In this document: one piece after another, positions 4,772 to 36,951 of the stretch
How positions within the stretch are numbered: position 1 is the stretch's first letter
Layout of the letters: every line of letters starts with the position of its first letter
Source: a virus
Strand: one strand, 5' to 3'
DNA: 38,955 bases
IMG/VR virus record: IMGVR_UViG_3300001528_000417
Location: 1-38,955 of that record
The notes under the pieces: model-generated
Database searches by the model: none
Seen by the model: the letters and a program-made list of their open reading frames with translations, nothing else
What the model was told of the DNA's origin: nothing
Program-made: the position numbers and the translations under genes

Positions 4772-4829
4772 GGCATAAAAATAGCGCCTTGCACGCGAAT
4801 GCAAAACGCTGAATTTATTAAATTTTTGC
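4772..4829 (-). repeat. Conserved hairpin/U-tract/RBS element, copy A (hairpin 4783..4810)
   Basis: Minus strand reads AGCGTTTTGCA-TTCGCG-TGCAAGGCGCT followed by ATTTTTATG. Homologous to copies B-E. Confidence 0.8.
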
Positions 4830-4835
4830 ATAAGA

Positions 4836-4859
4836 AAACCGCCTTTTTACGGGCGGTTT
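4836..4859 (-). terminator. Rho-independent terminator after the DUF4926-like gene
   Basis: Minus strand reads AAACCGCC-CGTAAAAA-GGCGGTTT followed by TCTTATGC. Confidence 0.7.
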
Positions 4860-5016
4860 AGTCTATTACGTTCTCAATTTCTGACGAAGAAATCAATTCA
4901 GTTATATAATCTCCGCCAATATCAATGTCAACGACATAATCATCGCCAATGAGGTCAACCACAGAACCTTTTCGCCCGTCTTTAAGCAAAACAGTATCAT
5001 AAAGTTTAATTATCAT
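4858..5016 (-). CDS. DUF4926-like small protein (candidate antitoxin/immunity partner)
   Basis: 52 aa, not in the ORF track: MIIKLYDTVLLKDGRKGSVVDLIGDDYVVDIDIGGDYITELISSSEIENVID. Overlaps the upstream gene by 11 nt. Followed by a terminator. Confidence 0.6.
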   Translation of the reverse strand: MIIKLYDTVLLKDGRKGSVVDLIGDDYVVDIDIGGDYITELISSSEIENVID

Positions 5017-5602
5017 CGTTCCTCGTCACCTTCTTCTTTGTCACATATGCGCTTGTAAGCCGCGGTTCAGTCTTGCCATTCTCAATTATCCAGCTAGTGC
5101 AAACGTTAGCCTGCTTGCCATTAGCACCAGTCAGGCACATTACATATTCATAAAGCTGACCGTGGTCATTTGAACCTTTTAGTTTTAACTCGCTTTCATC
5201 AAGGTTTACAGAGATGTTGTCGATAAGTTCTTGATAATTGTCCATTGTATATCCCAAGGCTTCACGAAAAGCGCGTGCTTTGTCAGGCTGTCTCAATGGA
5301 TCAAGAGCATATTTTGTGAACTTCTCTTTCTTAATTTCAGCAAAATACTGCAAACTTATTTTTACCGGCTGTTTTTTATCTATTATACCACTTCCGCCCG
5401 AAATGTCAACCCCGTTTCCACTCGTAAACCGTCCATTTTTGGGGTCGTGGTTCGGGTTAAAGCGGAGTTCTTCCGCCTGCTCTTGCAGCTCCCTTATCTC
5501 CGCTTCAAGCCTGCGTATTTCCTCGTCCTTGCTGTTTGCTTCCAGTATCAAAGAACGCGCAAATTCCGCCGCGCATTCGTACATTGTTTTGTAATCCGTC
5601 AT
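5006..5602 (-). CDS. Cassette protein X1: conserved N-terminal module plus DUF6883-like C-terminal domain
   Basis: 198 aa. The N-terminus is shared with X2 and X3. The C-terminus KFTKYALDP..PDKARAFREALGYT...GQLYEYVM..TSWIIENGKTEPRLTSAYV matches the DUF6883 pattern. ATGA overlap with terS. Confidence 0.7.
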   Translation of the reverse strand: MTDYKTMYECAAEFARSLILEANSKDEEIRRLEAEIRELQEQAEELRFNPNHDPKNGRFTSGNGVDISGGSGIIDKKQPVKISLQYFAEIKKEKFTKYALDPLRQPDKARAFREALGYTMDNYQELIDNISVNLDESELKLKGSNDHGQLYEYVMCLTGANGKQANVCTSWIIENGKTEPRLTSAYVTKKKVTRNDDN

Positions 5603-6171
5603 GTTTCTTCCTCATCTTCCCCGCCCGAGAGCAGAGCTATAAGCGGGTTTTCTGCCGCCTTTGACGGTTCTTTCGGAATGGTTCTAAGCGCCGCCGAAAC
5701 CGTCATGCAGTTCTCTTTTTCAATGTCAAACATCATCTTTCGCTTCTGCATTATTGCGCTGTCATACCCCACTATTGCCTTGTGCAATGCCGTAAGCTGC
5801 TTTGAAAATGCTATAATCTCATCAAATTCCATACCGTCAAGCTCGGCAAATTTCTTCTCAAGCGCGTCGGCGGTTTCGTACAACATTTTCTGCTTATCCT
5901 CAAAGTCCAGACACTCCGAATAGATCATGCAGTATCGGTTTATCACAGGTCCGTACAGCGCATCATTCTTCCCGATAGCTTTCATCAACTTGTTCAGCCG
6001 CAGAAACTCCCTATGCGCGACCTTGTGCGCCTTTACCTCGCCTCGCTCGAACAATTCCGCCCCGCTGAGCATTGCCTTTTCTCCGTCGGCTCGCACCGCA
6101 AGTTCCGCCTTTGTCCTATGCGATTTCTTCTCCTCTGTAATGACTGCCACAGGCTTTGACGGTCTCCCCAT
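5599..6171 (-). CDS. terS: Terminase small subunit, P27 family
   Basis: 190 aa. The MGRPSKP... N-terminus and HNH neighbour are typical of P27-type TerS. SD GGGGGTGAGG. Confidence 0.75.
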   Translation of the reverse strand: MGRPSKPVAVITEEKKSHRTKAELAVRADGEKAMLSGAELFERGEVKAHKVAHREFLRLNKLMKAIGKNDALYGPVINRYCMIYSECLDFEDKQKMLYETADALEKKFAELDGMEFDEIIAFSKQLTALHKAIVGYDSAIMQKRKMMFDIEKENCMTVSAALRTIPKEPSKAAENPLIALLSGGEDEEET

Positions 6172-35020: not shown

Positions 35021-35030
35021 TTTTTCCTCC

Positions 35031-36725
35031 TTAATACTGTACTACCCAGCCGTGCTTGTCCTGTTCGAGCAGGTCGAGATTGAGCAGATACATAGCGTTT
35101 ATCAGCGCGACTACCATATCGACCTTGCCCTCCGATTTCTTTTTGTTGACATATTTGTTGAGGTTCGTGTCGGTCGTGCAGCGCGCGTTCTGAAAGTTTA
35201 TTTCAAGCAGCATATTTTCATCATAAACGAACTGCCGCTGCATTATCTTTTCTTCGAGCAGCTTTGTCGCAGGATGCAGAAAGCTCGAATGCTGCCGTAT
35301 TTCAACACACTCGATAGGATTTTCCGCGCTCTCGAATTTCTGCACAGAAGAAAGCGCGTTCCAGCGGTCGAAGCCTAGCTGTAAAACGCGCACGCCGTAT
35401 CGCTCCTCGATTCCGAGTACGAACCGCTCCACATATTCATAGTCGATTATGTCCTCGCCGCACGGGAAGCAGTCCCCCGCGCGTATCGCAGCCTTGTAAT
35501 CAACATTTTCCTTTTTCGTTTTTGTTTCAACCGCTGCCGCGGGAATAAAGGCGAAAACTCTCGCGTATACCACTCCGTCAACGCAGCAAGCCATAGCGAC
35601 GGCGGTGTTATCCGACGTCTGCGAGAGATCGACCCCGAGGAAAACGGAGCGCCCGCGCCAGAAATCGTCGTCTTTCGGCCGCCTGCATTCTTTCAGCCGC
35701 AGAACGTCCACATACCCCTCTACGCCGAGGCTCTTGTACATGATATTGTTGTGCTTGCAAAGGTAGTTCTGCCGCTTGTTTTCGTATAATACCGCGTCTG
35801 CTCGCTTGTCTTTCAGGTCGTCGAATATGTAGTCGTGGCTGTAGGCAACGGGGTTCGACTGGTATATGCAAAGGTCGTTCGTCTGCCATTCCCCGCGTAT
35901 TTCCTCATCGGGTTCATACAGCAGCGAGAAATACCGCTTGTCGGGGTGCAGTCCCAGAAGGACCTTTTTCGCCTTGTCTATTTCGTCGATAAGCACGTTA
36001 TTGTCATTCGGATACTGCGTGCTTATGATAATGCCGAGCTTGTTCCGAAGCGTTATCTGCGACGAGCGCATCGCTTCTACAGGGTAGCTGTCCATTGCCC
36101 CCGCTTCGTCCGCAAGAAATATATTCGCCAGCTTTCCGTCCATTTTATCCTCGGAGTAGGCGAGCGGCGTGTATTCGCTGTCGGTGAGAATACAGCGTAC
36201 CTCGTTGCGCATTACGCGGATTATCTTATCGTCGCTGAGCAGCGGCGAGGACTTTATGATTTTTCTGATAGCTCCCTGAAGCTCCTTTGAGAGTTTAAGG
36301 TCGGGCGCAACCGAGAAGAAACGCGAAAATCGCGGCGAAATAAGCATACCGATAATGAATATTACCGCAGACGTGAACGTCTTGAAATTCTTTCGGGAAA
36401 TCTCGAGCAGAGCCGTGCGGTAGTAAAGCTGACCCGTGCCGCGCTGTAAGGTGCAGAACACGGCGATAACGAGCCACACCGCGTAATCTTCGAGCGCGTC
36501 GTACATTGGCTGATTAAGGTCGGGGTGGTTGATGATTTTGAGCAGTTTGCAGACCTTTTTCAACATTGCTTCGCCGATGAACGCGCCTGCGTCGTCCCCG
36601 TCCGCTATTTCAAGCCATTTCTGCGCTTGAAGCCGAACATATTTCGGCACATATCGGTTATTCTCCTGCGCCGCCCACGCGGCATAGCTGTAAGCCCGCG
36701 TGCTTCGCACGTCCATTCGGGTCAC
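35031..36725 (-). CDS. terL: Terminase large subunit (Terminase_1-like)
   Basis: 564 aa. Walker-like region and the LADEAGAMD motif. Precedes the portal gene. Confidence 0.85.
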   Translation of the reverse strand: MTRMDVRSTRAYSYAAWAAQENNRYVPKYVRLQAQKWLEIADGDDAGAFIGEAMLKKVCKLLKIINHPDLNQPMYDALEDYAVWLVIAVFCTLQRGTGQLYYRTALLEISRKNFKTFTSAVIFIIGMLISPRFSRFFSVAPDLKLSKELQGAIRKIIKSSPLLSDDKIIRVMRNEVRCILTDSEYTPLAYSEDKMDGKLANIFLADEAGAMDSYPVEAMRSSQITLRNKLGIIISTQYPNDNNVLIDEIDKAKKVLLGLHPDKRYFSLLYEPDEEIRGEWQTNDLCIYQSNPVAYSHDYIFDDLKDKRADAVLYENKRQNYLCKHNNIMYKSLGVEGYVDVLRLKECRRPKDDDFWRGRSVFLGVDLSQTSDNTAVAMACCVDGVVYARVFAFIPAAAVETKTKKENVDYKAAIRAGDCFPCGEDIIDYEYVERFVLGIEERYGVRVLQLGFDRWNALSSVQKFESAENPIECVEIRQHSSFLHPATKLLEEKIMQRQFVYDENMLLEINFQNARCTTDTNLNKYVNKKKSEGKVDMVVALINAMYLLNLDLLEQDKHGWVVQY

Positions 36726-36774
36726 TTCCTTTCCTATTACTTTCTCGGCTCGGGAATTTGCCTGATTCAGCTTT

Positions 36775-36879
36775 TTATCCGCTTATTGTAAGCAGAATTA
36801 CCGCCGACGCAAGCCCGCCTATCGCTCCCGCAATCATCGTTTCCGCGTGTTCTTCGAGAAATTCGATTATTCTTCGCAT
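36775..36879 (-). CDS. Small hydrophobic peptide (34 aa)
   Basis: MRRIIEFLEEHAETMIAGAIGGLASAVILLTISG. Uses the same 5' UTR, RBS and ATG context as the tape measure gene. Confidence 0.4.
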   Translation of the reverse strand: MRRIIEFLEEHAETMIAGAIGGLASAVILLTISG

Positions 36880-36951
36880 ATTTTTTCTCCTTTCGAGCAA
36901 TAAAAAAGCGCCTTGCACGCGAGTGCAAAACGCTGAATTTATTGAATTTTG
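36880..36951 (-). repeat. Conserved hairpin/U-tract/RBS element, copy D (hairpin 36907..36934)
   Basis: AGCGTTTTGCAC-TCGC-GTGCAAGGCGCT followed by TTTTTATTGCTCGAAAGGAG. Confidence 0.85.

Follow-up and report, generated by a model that had tools for sequence, protein, structure and literature searches.

Five hairpin copies in the late region of a Clostridia prophage

The stretch of DNA analysed here (the window, 38,955 nucleotides) is a prophage of gut Clostridia with a circular genome, positions 1-75 being identical to positions 38881-38955. An earlier note on this DNA had described five copies of a hairpin on the minus strand. When a covariance model was scored at every position of the window, exactly these five minus-strand copies were found; the whole plus strand gave no independent match, only mirror images of the copies at 19-22 bits. 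The exact pattern AGCGTTTTGCA-N2-10-TGCAAGGCGCT has four matches in the window and none is expected in shuffles. Copy A (6714..6757, 40.6 bits) is composed of a stem-loop at 6729-6753 and a U-tract, with the HNH start codon (6705) 23 nt further on. Copy B (4770..4815, 60.7 bits) comprises a hairpin at 4783-4810 and a U-tract, followed by a ribosome-binding site and the prohead protease ATG (4753). Copy C (36894..36939, hairpin 36907-36934, 59.4 bits) is part of a unit, 36877-36955, that extends over the ribosome-binding site and ATG of the gene for a 34-aa membrane peptide, which lies upstream of terL. Copy D (32660..32703, 56 bits), with a hairpin at 32673-32698 and a GAAA loop, begins 1 nt past the stop codon of DUF2513 and precedes the X3/par2 ATG (32646). 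Copy E (31880..31925, hairpin 31893-31920, 61.7 bits) belongs to a unit, 31863-31941, which contains a ribosome-binding site together with the ATG of the tape measure (31865).

Within the element, an AT-rich 5' leader is followed by a hairpin of 11-13 bp containing two G·U pairs and then by a U-tract ending in AUGCC; a Shine-Dalgarno sequence and start codon usually close its 3' end. The leader AAAATTCAATAAATTCA is common to only four of the five copies. At all five, the start codon that the note had assigned to the copy does follow, 23-29 nt past the hairpin, and the gap between U-tract and ribosome-binding site is only 8-16 nt. The apical loops differ as described. The reported 58-nt identical run including the ATG exists as well; the note had attributed it to copies 'B and D', and the pair is that of the terL and tape-measure copies, C and E (36934..36877 vs 31920..31863).

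On the minus strand, which is that of the late genes, the RNA of copies B-E has folding energies of -15.6 to -19 kcal/mol (B, -16.2; C, -18.1; D, -15.6; E, -19; z from -2.9 to -4.1), and 6-8 U directly follow their 11-13-bp stems. Their plus-strand versions contain a 2x2 internal loop and reach only -9.9 to -14.2 kcal/mol, in agreement with the strand specificity that had been ascribed to the two G-U pairs. The terminator-like character proposed for all five copies thus holds for four strong ones. Copy A is diverged and weak (-8.1 kcal/mol, z -0.4), with one internal mismatch and a broken basal pair that is intact in relatives; in this window it is too weak for an efficient terminator.

Promoter-bearing cassettes upstream of the copies

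The extended -10 motif TGnTATAAT occurs at 11 sites in the window, compared to 0.77 expected, and every copy has its own predicted near-consensus sigma-70-type promoter upstream. Five of the motif sites lie on the minus strand of the late region (6785, 5382, 38361, 33771 and 32417). After each of them a terminator precedes the next promoter, and in four cases this includes a family copy. The extended -10 promoter TGCTATAAT (6785..6793, minus strand) is located just downstream of the gene of a candidate late regulator (6812..7225), with a second element, TGATATAGT, directly after it; in relatives this promoter drives a variable cassette ending at copy A. A perfect promoter, TTGACA-16-TGGTATAAT (5382..5409, minus strand), lies within the par1 coding sequence, in the GVDISGGSGII linker, and its unit is closed by a hairpin at 4838-4857 together with copy B. 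This hairpin (4838..4857, minus strand; ACCGCC...GGCGGT + TTTCTTATGC), a canonical terminator standing in tandem with copy B at about 28 nt on its upstream side, is part of the upstream cassette and unrelated to the family, and it is replaced by other hairpins in relatives. The site at 38361 opens a unit encoding a skipping-rope sRNA (promoter 38361-38389, RNA 38247-38342) which ends at another unrelated terminator hairpin with the same TTTCTTATGC tail (38208..38231, minus strand). The consensus promoter TTGACT-17-TATAAT (38146..38174, minus strand) then opens the next unit, a cassette of ribbon-helix-helix (RHH, 37940-38116) and Bro-N antirepressor (36953-37708) genes closed by copy C. At the 3' end of the portal gene, the promoter TTGCAA-17-TGGTATAAT (33771..33799, minus strand) precedes a 116-aa gene (33096-33446) and DUF2513 (32717-33127), and copy D closes the unit. 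Lastly, a second perfect promoter TTGACA-16-TGGTATAAT (32417..32444, minus strand), a paralogue of the par1 promoter, lies inside X3/par2; its unit consists of the par2 C-terminus and a 70-aa gene (31947-32159) and is closed by copy E.

The cassettes contain toxin/immunity-like pairs, the RHH/antirepressor pair and DUF2513, with a methylase-like gene in relatives, and the core genes after the copies are HNH, protease/capsid, terL/portal and tape measure. Each copy marks the junction of a self-promoted accessory cassette ('moron') with the next core late gene. In silico, a transcript started at a cassette promoter would end at the hairpin.

The earlier note had also considered that the copies could be late promoters or activator sites, copy A lying where a RinA/ArpU-type late promoter would be expected; each copy would then start a late transcript under the control of the 6812-7225 protein. 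The copies are indeed just upstream of module-initial genes, some have an AATAAT/AATAAA -10-like hexamer 4-6 nt ahead of the hairpin, and a TTTAAA-17-AATAAT combination was flagged before copy E. However, no conserved pair of sigma-70-like hexamers at fixed spacing was found among 97 instances of the element, whose 5' flank is merely generically AT-rich; the loop varies in length from 2 to about 30 nt, which excludes a site spanning the hairpin; and a transcript begun at the hairpin would reach its own terminator within about 35 nt. The placement of copy A does not hold either: in close relatives a variable cassette of 0.6 kb lies between copy A and the regulator gene with its TGcTATAAT promoter, so that the regulator-adjacent promoter is without the element and the adjacency in the window reflects a missing cassette. 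As the regulator family is, in addition, absent from nearly all element-bearing phages, a promoter function appears very improbable.

The element family and cassette exchange in other phages

A search of related phages, suggested in the earlier note, showed that the 20-nt stem with its two G·U pairs, variable loops and TTTTTTATGCC tail recurs in about 90 related phage contigs. The exact stem with a T-tract is present at about 40 IMG/VR loci, where we estimate about one match by chance, and at about 50 loci in MAGs of Oscillospiraceae/Ruminococcus type (Clostridia); Rfam gave no match to the element. Among 53 non-redundant instances from other phages, a same-strand TGnTAWAAT is found within 1.5 kb upstream in 37, at 300-1490 nt, and downstream in only 4. 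A second, unrelated predicted terminator often stands in tandem just upstream of the family hairpin: such a partner was seen in 31 of 86 instances elsewhere compared to 2 of 86 control windows. In a crude and noisy test, the upstream ORF was co-oriented with the element in 53 of 75 instances and the downstream ORF in 58 of 75.

There are 38 loop types among the instances. The apical closing pair of the stem covaries, alternating between G-C, A-U and C-G, and compensatory changes are found in L001 (G-C to C-G) and L092 (G-C to A-U). Pairing is preserved in all four variants at the G·U positions, and in L049, L030 and L011 the entire stem is exchanged while the flanks are conserved. Combined, the covariation and compensatory changes point to selection for the hairpin. 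In addition, all 20 stem bases are the same between phages whose terL are only 58% identical and whose capsid proteins are 28% identical; free variation is seen in the tandem partner and not in the family hairpin. Keeping 20/20 stem bases across divergent phages is more than an ordinary terminator would require, which is a counterpoint to reading the element as a terminator only; an account by recombination or gene conversion is plausible.

Such constancy could also mean that a phage or host factor binds the invariant G·U stem, as a nut/put-like signal or attenuator, and switches the terminators off in the lytic cycle. The retention of the G·U pairs in 25 of 29 IMG/VR instances, although the retrieval pattern permitted alternatives, would fit, as would the presence of the same stem in Clostridiales and Agathobacter MAGs, where it lies in promoter-proximal leaders of ATP-grasp genes; these leader matches may be chance multiplied by orthology, about 10 chance matches being estimated for the genome scan. 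Against it, loops are free to vary, whole stems are replaceable between the same flanks, no protein is common to all element-bearing loci, the regulator family is much less frequent than the element, and the unrelated tandem terminators would still need to be read through. We consider a recognition site quite unlikely.

The junctions around the element are mosaic. In 690 of 780 instance pairs the element is in common without any common flank, flanks being usually unrelated between contigs, and 19 of 780 have a single flank in common and break at the element. Sites A and B are each occupied by at least four different cassettes in relatives with 92-97% identity to the window, and near-identical relatives exchange exactly the promoter-to-hairpin segment, with toxin/immunity-like, antirepressor or methylase cassettes. 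At site B, homology stops at window position 5381 or 5373, just past the -10 of the internal promoter (within 8 nt), and resumes at 4838 or 4822, in the leader of copy B. The copy B junction is kept in eight relatives with differing upstream cassettes, and the element stays with the downstream core gene, the cassettes bringing their own terminators. In L011 the RHH/Bro cassette, with the promoter that it has at 38146..38174 in the window, sits between two family elements. The suggestion that the copies are recombination junctions is thus supported: by comparison between relatives, homology breaks at the conserved ~45-75-nt element and at the conserved promoter-bearing sequence on the left.

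Mosaic junctions between unrelated flanks, the L011 arrangement, the frequent breaks of relatives' contigs at the element and its place at the 3' end of cassettes, which recalls attC, might be expected of a selfish or structural repeat, a recombination scar or mobile cassette (MITE, integron attC-like) with no regulatory role. However, there are no terminal inverted repeats and no target-site duplications, the hairpin of 26-30 nt is far below attC length, and no recombinase is shared, the window encoding a tyrosine integrase and the relative L167 a serine recombinase. The kept U-tract, the strand bias with genes and the pairing with promoters argue for a transcriptional function, and a purely selfish origin is highly unlikely.

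The persistence of the element beside the core gene at site B is also compatible with a role in the core-gene 5' UTR. The hairpin could act mainly in RNA stability or processing, as a protective 3' end for upstream segments or as a 5' stabiliser of head-gene mRNA after cleavage, termination being minor. The attachment to the downstream gene, the strand-specific G·U pairs suggestive of an RNA-level role, and a ribosome-binding site at a fixed 14-20 nt in the window and in about half of the other instances are in line with this, and downstream genes often encode protease, scaffold-like protein, terL or tape measure (several functions being judged from sequence). On the other hand, a ribosome-binding site is missing within 40 nt in about half of the instances, 6-8 U right after a strong hairpin are a signature of termination and not of stabilisation, and pairing with an upstream promoter is what a terminator leads one to expect. 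Stems of 11-13 bp are, moreover, too short for RNase III. We therefore regard this role as unlikely.

Proposed read-through of the copies and related systems

If the copies terminate cassette transcripts, late transcripts of the essential downstream genes must pass the hairpins, because no promoter fits before the ribosome-binding site; from the anatomy, they would read through every copy. The earlier note had reasoned that genuine terminators at these places would imply dedicated antitermination. Terminator anatomy, promoter-opened units and forced read-through agree with this argument; for the last step we infer either a terminator-resistant RNA polymerase, i.e. processive antitermination, or leaky termination. 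A candidate for establishing antitermination, at the TGcTATAAT promoter, is the 137-aa protein whose gene lies immediately upstream of that promoter (6812..7225, minus strand; phrog_11237). This protein has no Pfam match and no match to known antiterminator, sigma factor or activator families, and no PDB structure matches its AlphaFold2 model (pLDDT 81). For all homologues examined, the gene comes last before the late gene set, which consists of packaging genes or, in L052, tail genes. In three of four lineages an extended -10 promoter, a terminator-like hairpin and the first late gene follow, with extended -10 elements comparable to 6785..6793 in L054 and L049. The family is tiny (11 clusters), against about 90 other phage contigs with the element, so the protein cannot be the general partner of the element. 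It may be a read-through factor.

Morons of lambdoid/HK97-like phages were reportedly first described by Juhala/Hendrix in 2000. They are independently transcribed units in late operons, often with their own promoter and factor-independent terminator (PMC2629481). The cassettes resemble them in that accessory genes lie between conserved late genes, each with a consensus host-type promoter and a terminator, in being present, absent or replaced between close relatives, and in that late transcription would have to read through. They differ in that one conserved terminator family is used at five sites and in about 90 other contigs, the hairpins of morons being idiosyncratic, in that the promoter forming the left boundary lies within a conserved coding module, and in that no Q-type antiterminator is recognisable. 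The promoter-early stem-loop (PeSL) elements, mobile regulatory cassettes of T4-type phages (Arbiol et al. 2010, PMC2839356), share the repeated intergenic motif, the AT-rich stretch after an upstream stop codon, a stem-loop with G-T pairs as (here predicted) terminator, the Shine-Dalgarno sequence and start codon at the 3' end, and the enrichment beside variable genes at insertion, deletion or replacement boundaries. However, PeSL contains a strong sigma-70 promoter and is found in the early region, whereas here the promoter lies outside the element, 0.3-1.5 kb upstream, the sites are in the late region of temperate siphoviruses that infect Clostridia, and conservation of the element extends to very divergent phages.

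A published case of processive antitermination past numerous internal terminators is conAn, from conjugative plasmids among Gram-positive mobile elements; its authors suggest a probable role in keeping the effects of spurious transcription low (PMC8191782). As in lambda Q/pR'/tR' late control and conAn, a regulator gene, directly upstream of an activator-independent-looking promoter, is followed here by a terminator and a long operon with several internal terminators. In contrast to these systems, homology to the Q, N and ConAn1 families is absent, as is a large structured leader RNA, and read-through is inferred from sequence. Like RinA, ArpU and LtrC, late activators of Gram-positive phages (PMC3152322, PMC3753634), the 137-aa protein is a small protein encoded by the last early gene, directly upstream of the packaging genes. 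It has no detectable sequence or fold similarity to them. To our knowledge, these activators each work from one late promoter, and no repeated family of terminators within the operon has been described for them.

The interpretation in the earlier note is thus partly supported: among its four alternatives, terminators with read-through are best supported, recombination junctions are also supported, late promoters are not, and a role in RNA processing or stabilisation is a less likely possibility. In conclusion, we consider it probable that the copies are portable intrinsic (Rho-independent) terminators insulating core late genes from cassette promoters, as well as recombination linkers. Virion and lysis genes would thereby be shielded from constitutive cassette transcription in the lysogen. 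The element may double as a homology arm for cassette exchange, a role that would explain its spread and the constancy of its sequence.

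Terminator-like hairpins in the late region

The window holds a temperate siphovirus genome, with an HTH repressor, an ImmA-like protease and a tyrosine integrase encoded on the plus strand, and is circularly closed by an identical 75-nt overlap (1-75 and 38881-38955), giving a genome of ~38,880 bp. By megablast, the whole window had no match among GenBank phages, and exact-product look-ups of the portal and DUF2513 proteins found none on record. The late genes lie on the minus strand and start with a putative regulator of 137 aa (6812-7225), followed by copy A of the element, HNH, terS, par1 (DUF6883), a 52-aa gene and copy B. 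Then come the S78 protease, capsid, connectors, tail tube, a gp10-like gene, par3 (PBECR2 nuclease), a skipping-rope sRNA, RHH, the Bro-N antirepressor, copy C, a 34-aa peptide, terL and portal, and finally a 116-aa gene, DUF2513, copy D, X3/par2, a 70-aa gene, copy E, the tape measure, tail and lysis genes. All copies therefore come after accessory genes and before the next gene unit, which consists of core late genes after A, B, C and E and of the X3/par2 cassette after D.

The gene order is odd, as the head and tail-tube set parts terS (5599-6171) from terL and portal (33431-36725). Misassembly or a recent rearrangement at the repeats was excluded as the cause, since two independent assemblies of related loci (L167 and L168) have identical joins. 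The split recurs in contigs L001 and L045, whose terL is only 58% identical; this common order also counters misassembly, as does the divergence of the copies outside runs of 21-58 nt. A direct repeat of 127 nt (21988-22114 and 23079-23205, plus strand, 86% identical) was seen between the integrase and the endolysin, where there are no convincing genes; a perfect TTGACA-17-TATAAT promoter is present in both repeat copies.

A covariance model built from the window copies and relatives was scored at all positions of both strands. Exactly five minus-strand matches were obtained in the window: copy A before HNH (6714-6757, 40.6 bits), copy B before the prohead protease (4770-4815, 60.7 bits), copy C before the 34-aa peptide and then terL (36894-36939, 59.4 bits), copy D before X3/par2 (32660-32703, 56 bits) and copy E before the tape measure (31880-31925, 61.7 bits). 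Plus-strand mirror images scored 19-22 bits, and the exact stem pattern matched four times in the window compared to none in 100 shuffles. Together with a reading of the sites, the model confirmed the five minus-strand copies listed in an earlier note. A 58-nt identity, start codon included, which that note ascribed to copies "B and D" is in fact shared by 36934..36877, before the small peptide and terL, and 31920..31863, before the tape measure.

All sites have the same layout. The hairpin AGCGTTTTGCA-loop-TGCAAGGCGCT comes after an AT-rich leader and is followed by a T-tract, then by a purine-rich ribosome-binding site and the start codon. In the minus-strand RNA, copies B-E form 11-13-bp stems of -15.6 to -19 kcal/mol (z -2.9 to -4.1) followed by 6-8 U, that is, the stable GC-containing stem-loop and U-rich tract of an intrinsic terminator; copy A is marginal in the window (-8.1 kcal/mol, z -0.4). 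The G-U pairs of the stem become A-C mismatches on the other strand, as had been noticed before, and the opposite-strand versions, with two A·C mismatches each, fold more weakly (-9.9 to -14.2 kcal/mol). By anatomy, the copies are predicted in silico to be intrinsic terminators of canonical form.

A search of Rfam with the five sites gave no match down to E = 1. Integron attC sites are imperfect palindromes of at least ~55 nt with R and L boxes, acted on by an integron integrase. This identity was rejected, as the hairpin here is 26-30 nt plus a U-tract and no recombinase is encoded other than a phage-type tyrosine integrase or, in L167, a serine recombinase. REP/MITE elements, CRISPR-repeat mimics and RNase III sites were ruled out because the element has the wrong size, a U-tract and variable loops, and because no cognate enzyme is present.

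Predicted promoter-terminator units and cassette exchange

The extended -10 sequence TGnTATAAT occurs at 11 sites in the window, compared to 0.77 expected. Its minus-strand sites in the late region are at 6785, 5382, 38361, 33771 and 32417, with a perfect or near-perfect -35 in three, and every one of these five promoters meets a terminator before the next promoter. On this strand, the promoter at 6785-6793 is closed by copy A, that at 5382-5409 by a hairpin at 4838-4857 and copy B, that at 33771-33799 by copy D and that at 32417-32444 by copy E. The promoter at 38361-38389 (TTTACA-17-TGcTATAAT) drives the sRNA unit, closed by a terminator at 38208-38231, after which another minus-strand promoter (38146-38174) opens the unit ending at copy C. 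All family copies in the window are thereby found 3' of a consensus promoter. In other phages, 53 non-redundant instances of the element were analyzed: a same-strand TGnTAWAAT lies at most 1.5 kb upstream in 37 and downstream in 4. With this pairing, the elements stand at the 3' end of co-oriented transcription and are thus the predicted ends of short host-type transcription units. A crude longest-ORF orientation test around the element instances was set aside as too noisy. Antisense extended -10 promoters were also seen on the plus strand at 5809-5817 (terS), 37859-37867 (RHH/Bro cassette) and 38688-38696 (par3); in the other phages, antisense promoters lie upstream of the element in 18 of the 53 instances and downstream in 8.

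The earlier note had raised the possibility that each copy is itself a late promoter or activator site, copy A being located where a late promoter is expected. In relatives, however, copy A and the promoter adjacent to the regulator gene are separate. Furthermore, the late-promoter motif beside that gene has one occurrence only, the copies have no conserved or consistent hexamers, their loop length varies, and a transcript starting at a copy would end on its own hairpin. A late promoter at each copy is disfavoured on these grounds.

Read as terminators, the elements close promoter-cargo-terminator units that match the usual description of morons, self-promoted units inside the late operon (PMC2629481). 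In silico, non-structural genes (DUF6883, PBECR2, RHH, Bro-N and DUF2513) are enclosed by a promoter and a terminator of their own, and such units are present, absent or replaced among relatives, with conserved core flanks, at sites A and B and, when the window is compared with L167, at site C. As far as function can be predicted from sequence, the elements are moron terminators.

Exchange at the elements was assessed from 780 pairs of instances: 690 have only the element in common, with no likeness within 400 nt on either side, 31 are alike on both sides and 19 on one side, the break in the one-side examples inspected lying at the borders of a ~75-nt cassette. Direct evidence came from relatives 92-97% identical to the window. 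At site A, the interval between the TGcTATAAT promoter and copy A holds, in relatives, four different gene sets that are absent from the window. Between terS and the protease, relatives have par variants whose C-termini are Ntox50, DUF6883 or others, together with small ORFs, or an extra methylase-like gene. In four independent variants at site B, homology ends at 5381 or 5373, just past the -10 of the promoter located in the par1 linker GVDISGGSGII, and resumes at 4838 or 4822, in the copy B leader. The unit exchanged is therefore the predicted transcription unit, beginning just past the -10 of its promoter and ending where the conserved terminator starts. At site C, the RHH/Bro-N cassette of the window is missing from L167, and in L011 this cassette and its promoter are flanked by two family elements. 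The earlier suggestion that the elements are recombination junctions gains support from these homology breaks at the element among relatives.

A second, unrelated terminator lies at most 75 nt upstream in 31 of 86 instances, compared to 2 of 86 control windows. At site B, this tandem partner changes with the cassette, but the family hairpin remains joined to the protease gene. As the element stays with its downstream gene, a role in stabilising or processing RNA may coexist with termination. Combined, the analyses established in silico the promoter pairing, the position at cassette-core junctions and the breakpoints at the element.

The promoter of the par1 and par2 units is a perfect TTGACA-16-TGGTATAAT (5382-5409 and 32417-32444, minus strand) inside the Gly/Ser linker, which parts a conserved N-terminal module from a variable C-terminal domain; homology with relatives ends at most 8 nt from its -10. 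The three paralogues (5006-5602, 32152-32646 and 38373-38936, minus strand) have a common N-terminus of ~75 aa, with a coiled coil and NPNHDPKNGRFTSG, and different C-termini (DUF6883, unassigned and PBECR2 nuclease). Relatives with an identical protease (L057 and L167-L174) have Ntox50, CdiA_C or other C-termini at the corresponding sites, and a small ORF comes next in most par variants seen; the par genes resemble polymorphic toxin/immunity cassettes, here located in the late region of a phage. A similar motif, NPYHAKDGKFT, is present in the C-terminal extension of the portal. Codon 13 of X3/par2 is an in-frame TGA (32608-32610, minus strand) but encodes Cys in par1; either the N-terminus is pseudogenic or, with much lower probability, the codon is recoded. 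The skipping-rope RNA (38247-38342, minus strand; Rfam RF02924, 56 bits with a gathering score of 36.7) is the only real Rfam match in the window; it has its own promoter and terminator inside the late region and adjoins the PBECR2 toxin-like gene.

The element family in phages and gut Clostridia

Related phages were searched for the element and for covariation in its stem, as the earlier note had advised, and both were found in IMG/VR and MAG contigs. The stem with its T-tract is present in ~40 IMG/VR contigs and ~50 Clostridia MAG contigs (Oscillospiraceae, Ruminococcus, Ruminiclostridium, Acutalibacteraceae and others), and a human-gut Ruminococcaceae contig (L096) carries the window's own protease junction. 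Pattern matches without a T-tract, in mnmE-like coding regions and in non-Clostridia genomes or unrelated phyla, were treated as chance. The consensus over 97 unique instances is an A-rich leader, GCGTTTTGCA, loop, TGCAAGGCGC and (T/A)TTTTTTATGCCC, with a ribosome-binding site 14-20 nt 3' in about half of them. A full-text literature search for the stem sequences found no paper, and the family appears undescribed.

The closing pairs of six-base loops covary (G-C, A-U, C-G), and second copies found by the model show compensatory changes, from G-C to C-G in L001 and L045 and from G-C to A-U in L092. When all 16 combinations were allowed at the two G·U positions, the original was kept in 25 of 29 loci and the remainder were pairing variants only. 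Judged by these substitutions, the hairpin is under selection. Different stems occur inside identical flanks in L049, L030 and L011, a comparison by which the stem sequence is dispensable. The tail TTTYTTATGC is also found 3' of unrelated hairpins; together with the last G of the stem, it would, going by the published pause consensus, place a pause-like G(-10)/Y(-1)/G(+1) context where release is expected.

Alternatively, the invariant 20-nt stem and its two adjacent G·U pairs could be a recognition signal embedded in the terminator and read by a phage or host factor which, on induction, would make the insulators permissive for read-through or recruit a complex for processive antitermination. 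Such a signal would best explain an invariant stem beside freely varying tandem partners and, if real, would be a new nut/put-like signal common to many Oscillospirales phages. Stems are nevertheless replaceable and no partner gene is common to the instances, and we consider a recognition signal improbable.

An identical 20-nt stem with covarying flank extensions and a T-tract was also seen in Clostridiales MAGs (L094, L117, L130, L139) and Agathobacter (L142, L144), where it separates a conserved 439-aa gene, ribosome-binding site included, from a consensus promoter; by its sequence, the product looks like an ATP-grasp protein. The stem looks like a leader attenuator there, and the match may also be chance multiplied by orthology.

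Among described systems, the PeSL cassettes of T4-type phages come closest to these moron terminators, both in their architecture and in the way they evolve. PeSLs (PMC2839356) lie at replacement boundaries and combine an AT-rich stretch with a stem-loop terminator that includes G-T pairs, as well as a start codon with its Shine-Dalgarno sequence. The element has all four traits, being a repeated intergenic motif with a terminator stem-loop at indel or replacement boundaries. A strong sigma-70 promoter was not found within the motif, the conserved core having no hexamer pair and the flank being generically AT-rich. As this defining promoter is absent, the element is not classed as PeSL.

Probable read-through of the elements in lytic growth

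The U-tract lies 8-16 nt from the ribosome-binding site and the hairpin 23-29 nt from the ATG. The protease/capsid, terL/portal and tape measure/tail mRNAs must therefore pass the elements, which requires termination to be leaky or suppressed in lytic growth. That terminators before late genes imply read-through or antitermination, as previously argued, is favoured by their anatomy, the promoter pairing and this forced passage; antitermination would be one mechanism and leaky termination another.

The regulator gene (phrog_11237) is invariably the last before a late set, consisting of packaging genes or, in L052, of tail genes. Directly 3' of it, the window carries adjacent extended -10 elements TGCTATAAT and TGATATAGT (6776-6793, minus strand), identical in L057-L066; the tandem, which is absent from the more distant homologues L054 and L049, resembles a promoter with a sigma-dependent pause element. 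A promoter directly 3' of the regulator gene and then a terminator is the arrangement of Q/pR'/tR', and the order regulator, promoter, terminator, late genes was found in three of four lineages (the window, L054-56 and L049), L052 not showing it clearly. In L049 (1100-1235; regulator homologue 48% identical), a putative tRNA gene recognized by eye follows the regulator promoter, and ~500 nt of non-coding DNA separate it from the first late gene.

The regulator matched nothing in Pfam, NCBIfam or PDB sequences and profiles, and its sole PHROGs match was phrog_11237, with no function assigned. Foldseek with an AlphaFold2 model gave no informative match (best E = 0.89), a peptide-pattern search of IMG/VR found no relatives, and no homology to the Q family or other known antiterminators was detected. 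Processive antitermination through many terminators is documented in Gram-positive conjugative elements (conAn, PMC8191782). Given this precedent, the position of the regulator and the promoter-hairpin order in three of the four lineages, a Q-like scheme for read-through is attractive; as the regulator matches no known family or fold and the element is much more widespread than the regulator's family, we put this step forward as a hypothesis.

We propose that the hairpins would stop transcripts from constitutive cassette promoters and thereby prevent expression of virion and lysis genes in the lysogen. The elements would also supply short homology for cassette exchange, a process that would homogenise their sequence.

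No new principle is involved: moron terminators and PeSL-like cassettes are already established. If our reading is right, the ~46-nt covariance model would be a searchable signature that marks the borders of exchangeable accessory cassettes in prophages of gut Clostridia (Oscillospiraceae and Ruminococcus relatives), bacteria that are abundant but have been little studied. Swapping a whole transcription unit, delimited on one side by the conserved terminator and on the other by a point just past a promoter that lies within a conserved coding linker, would be a neat way to exchange toxin/immunity-like and anti-repressor cargo with the virion genes undisturbed. The five to eight predicted terminators across the late genes would imply an undiscovered read-through or antitermination mechanism, with the 137-aa protein family as a candidate factor. 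The element family itself is useful for recognizing cassette boundaries in prophages of gut Clostridia.
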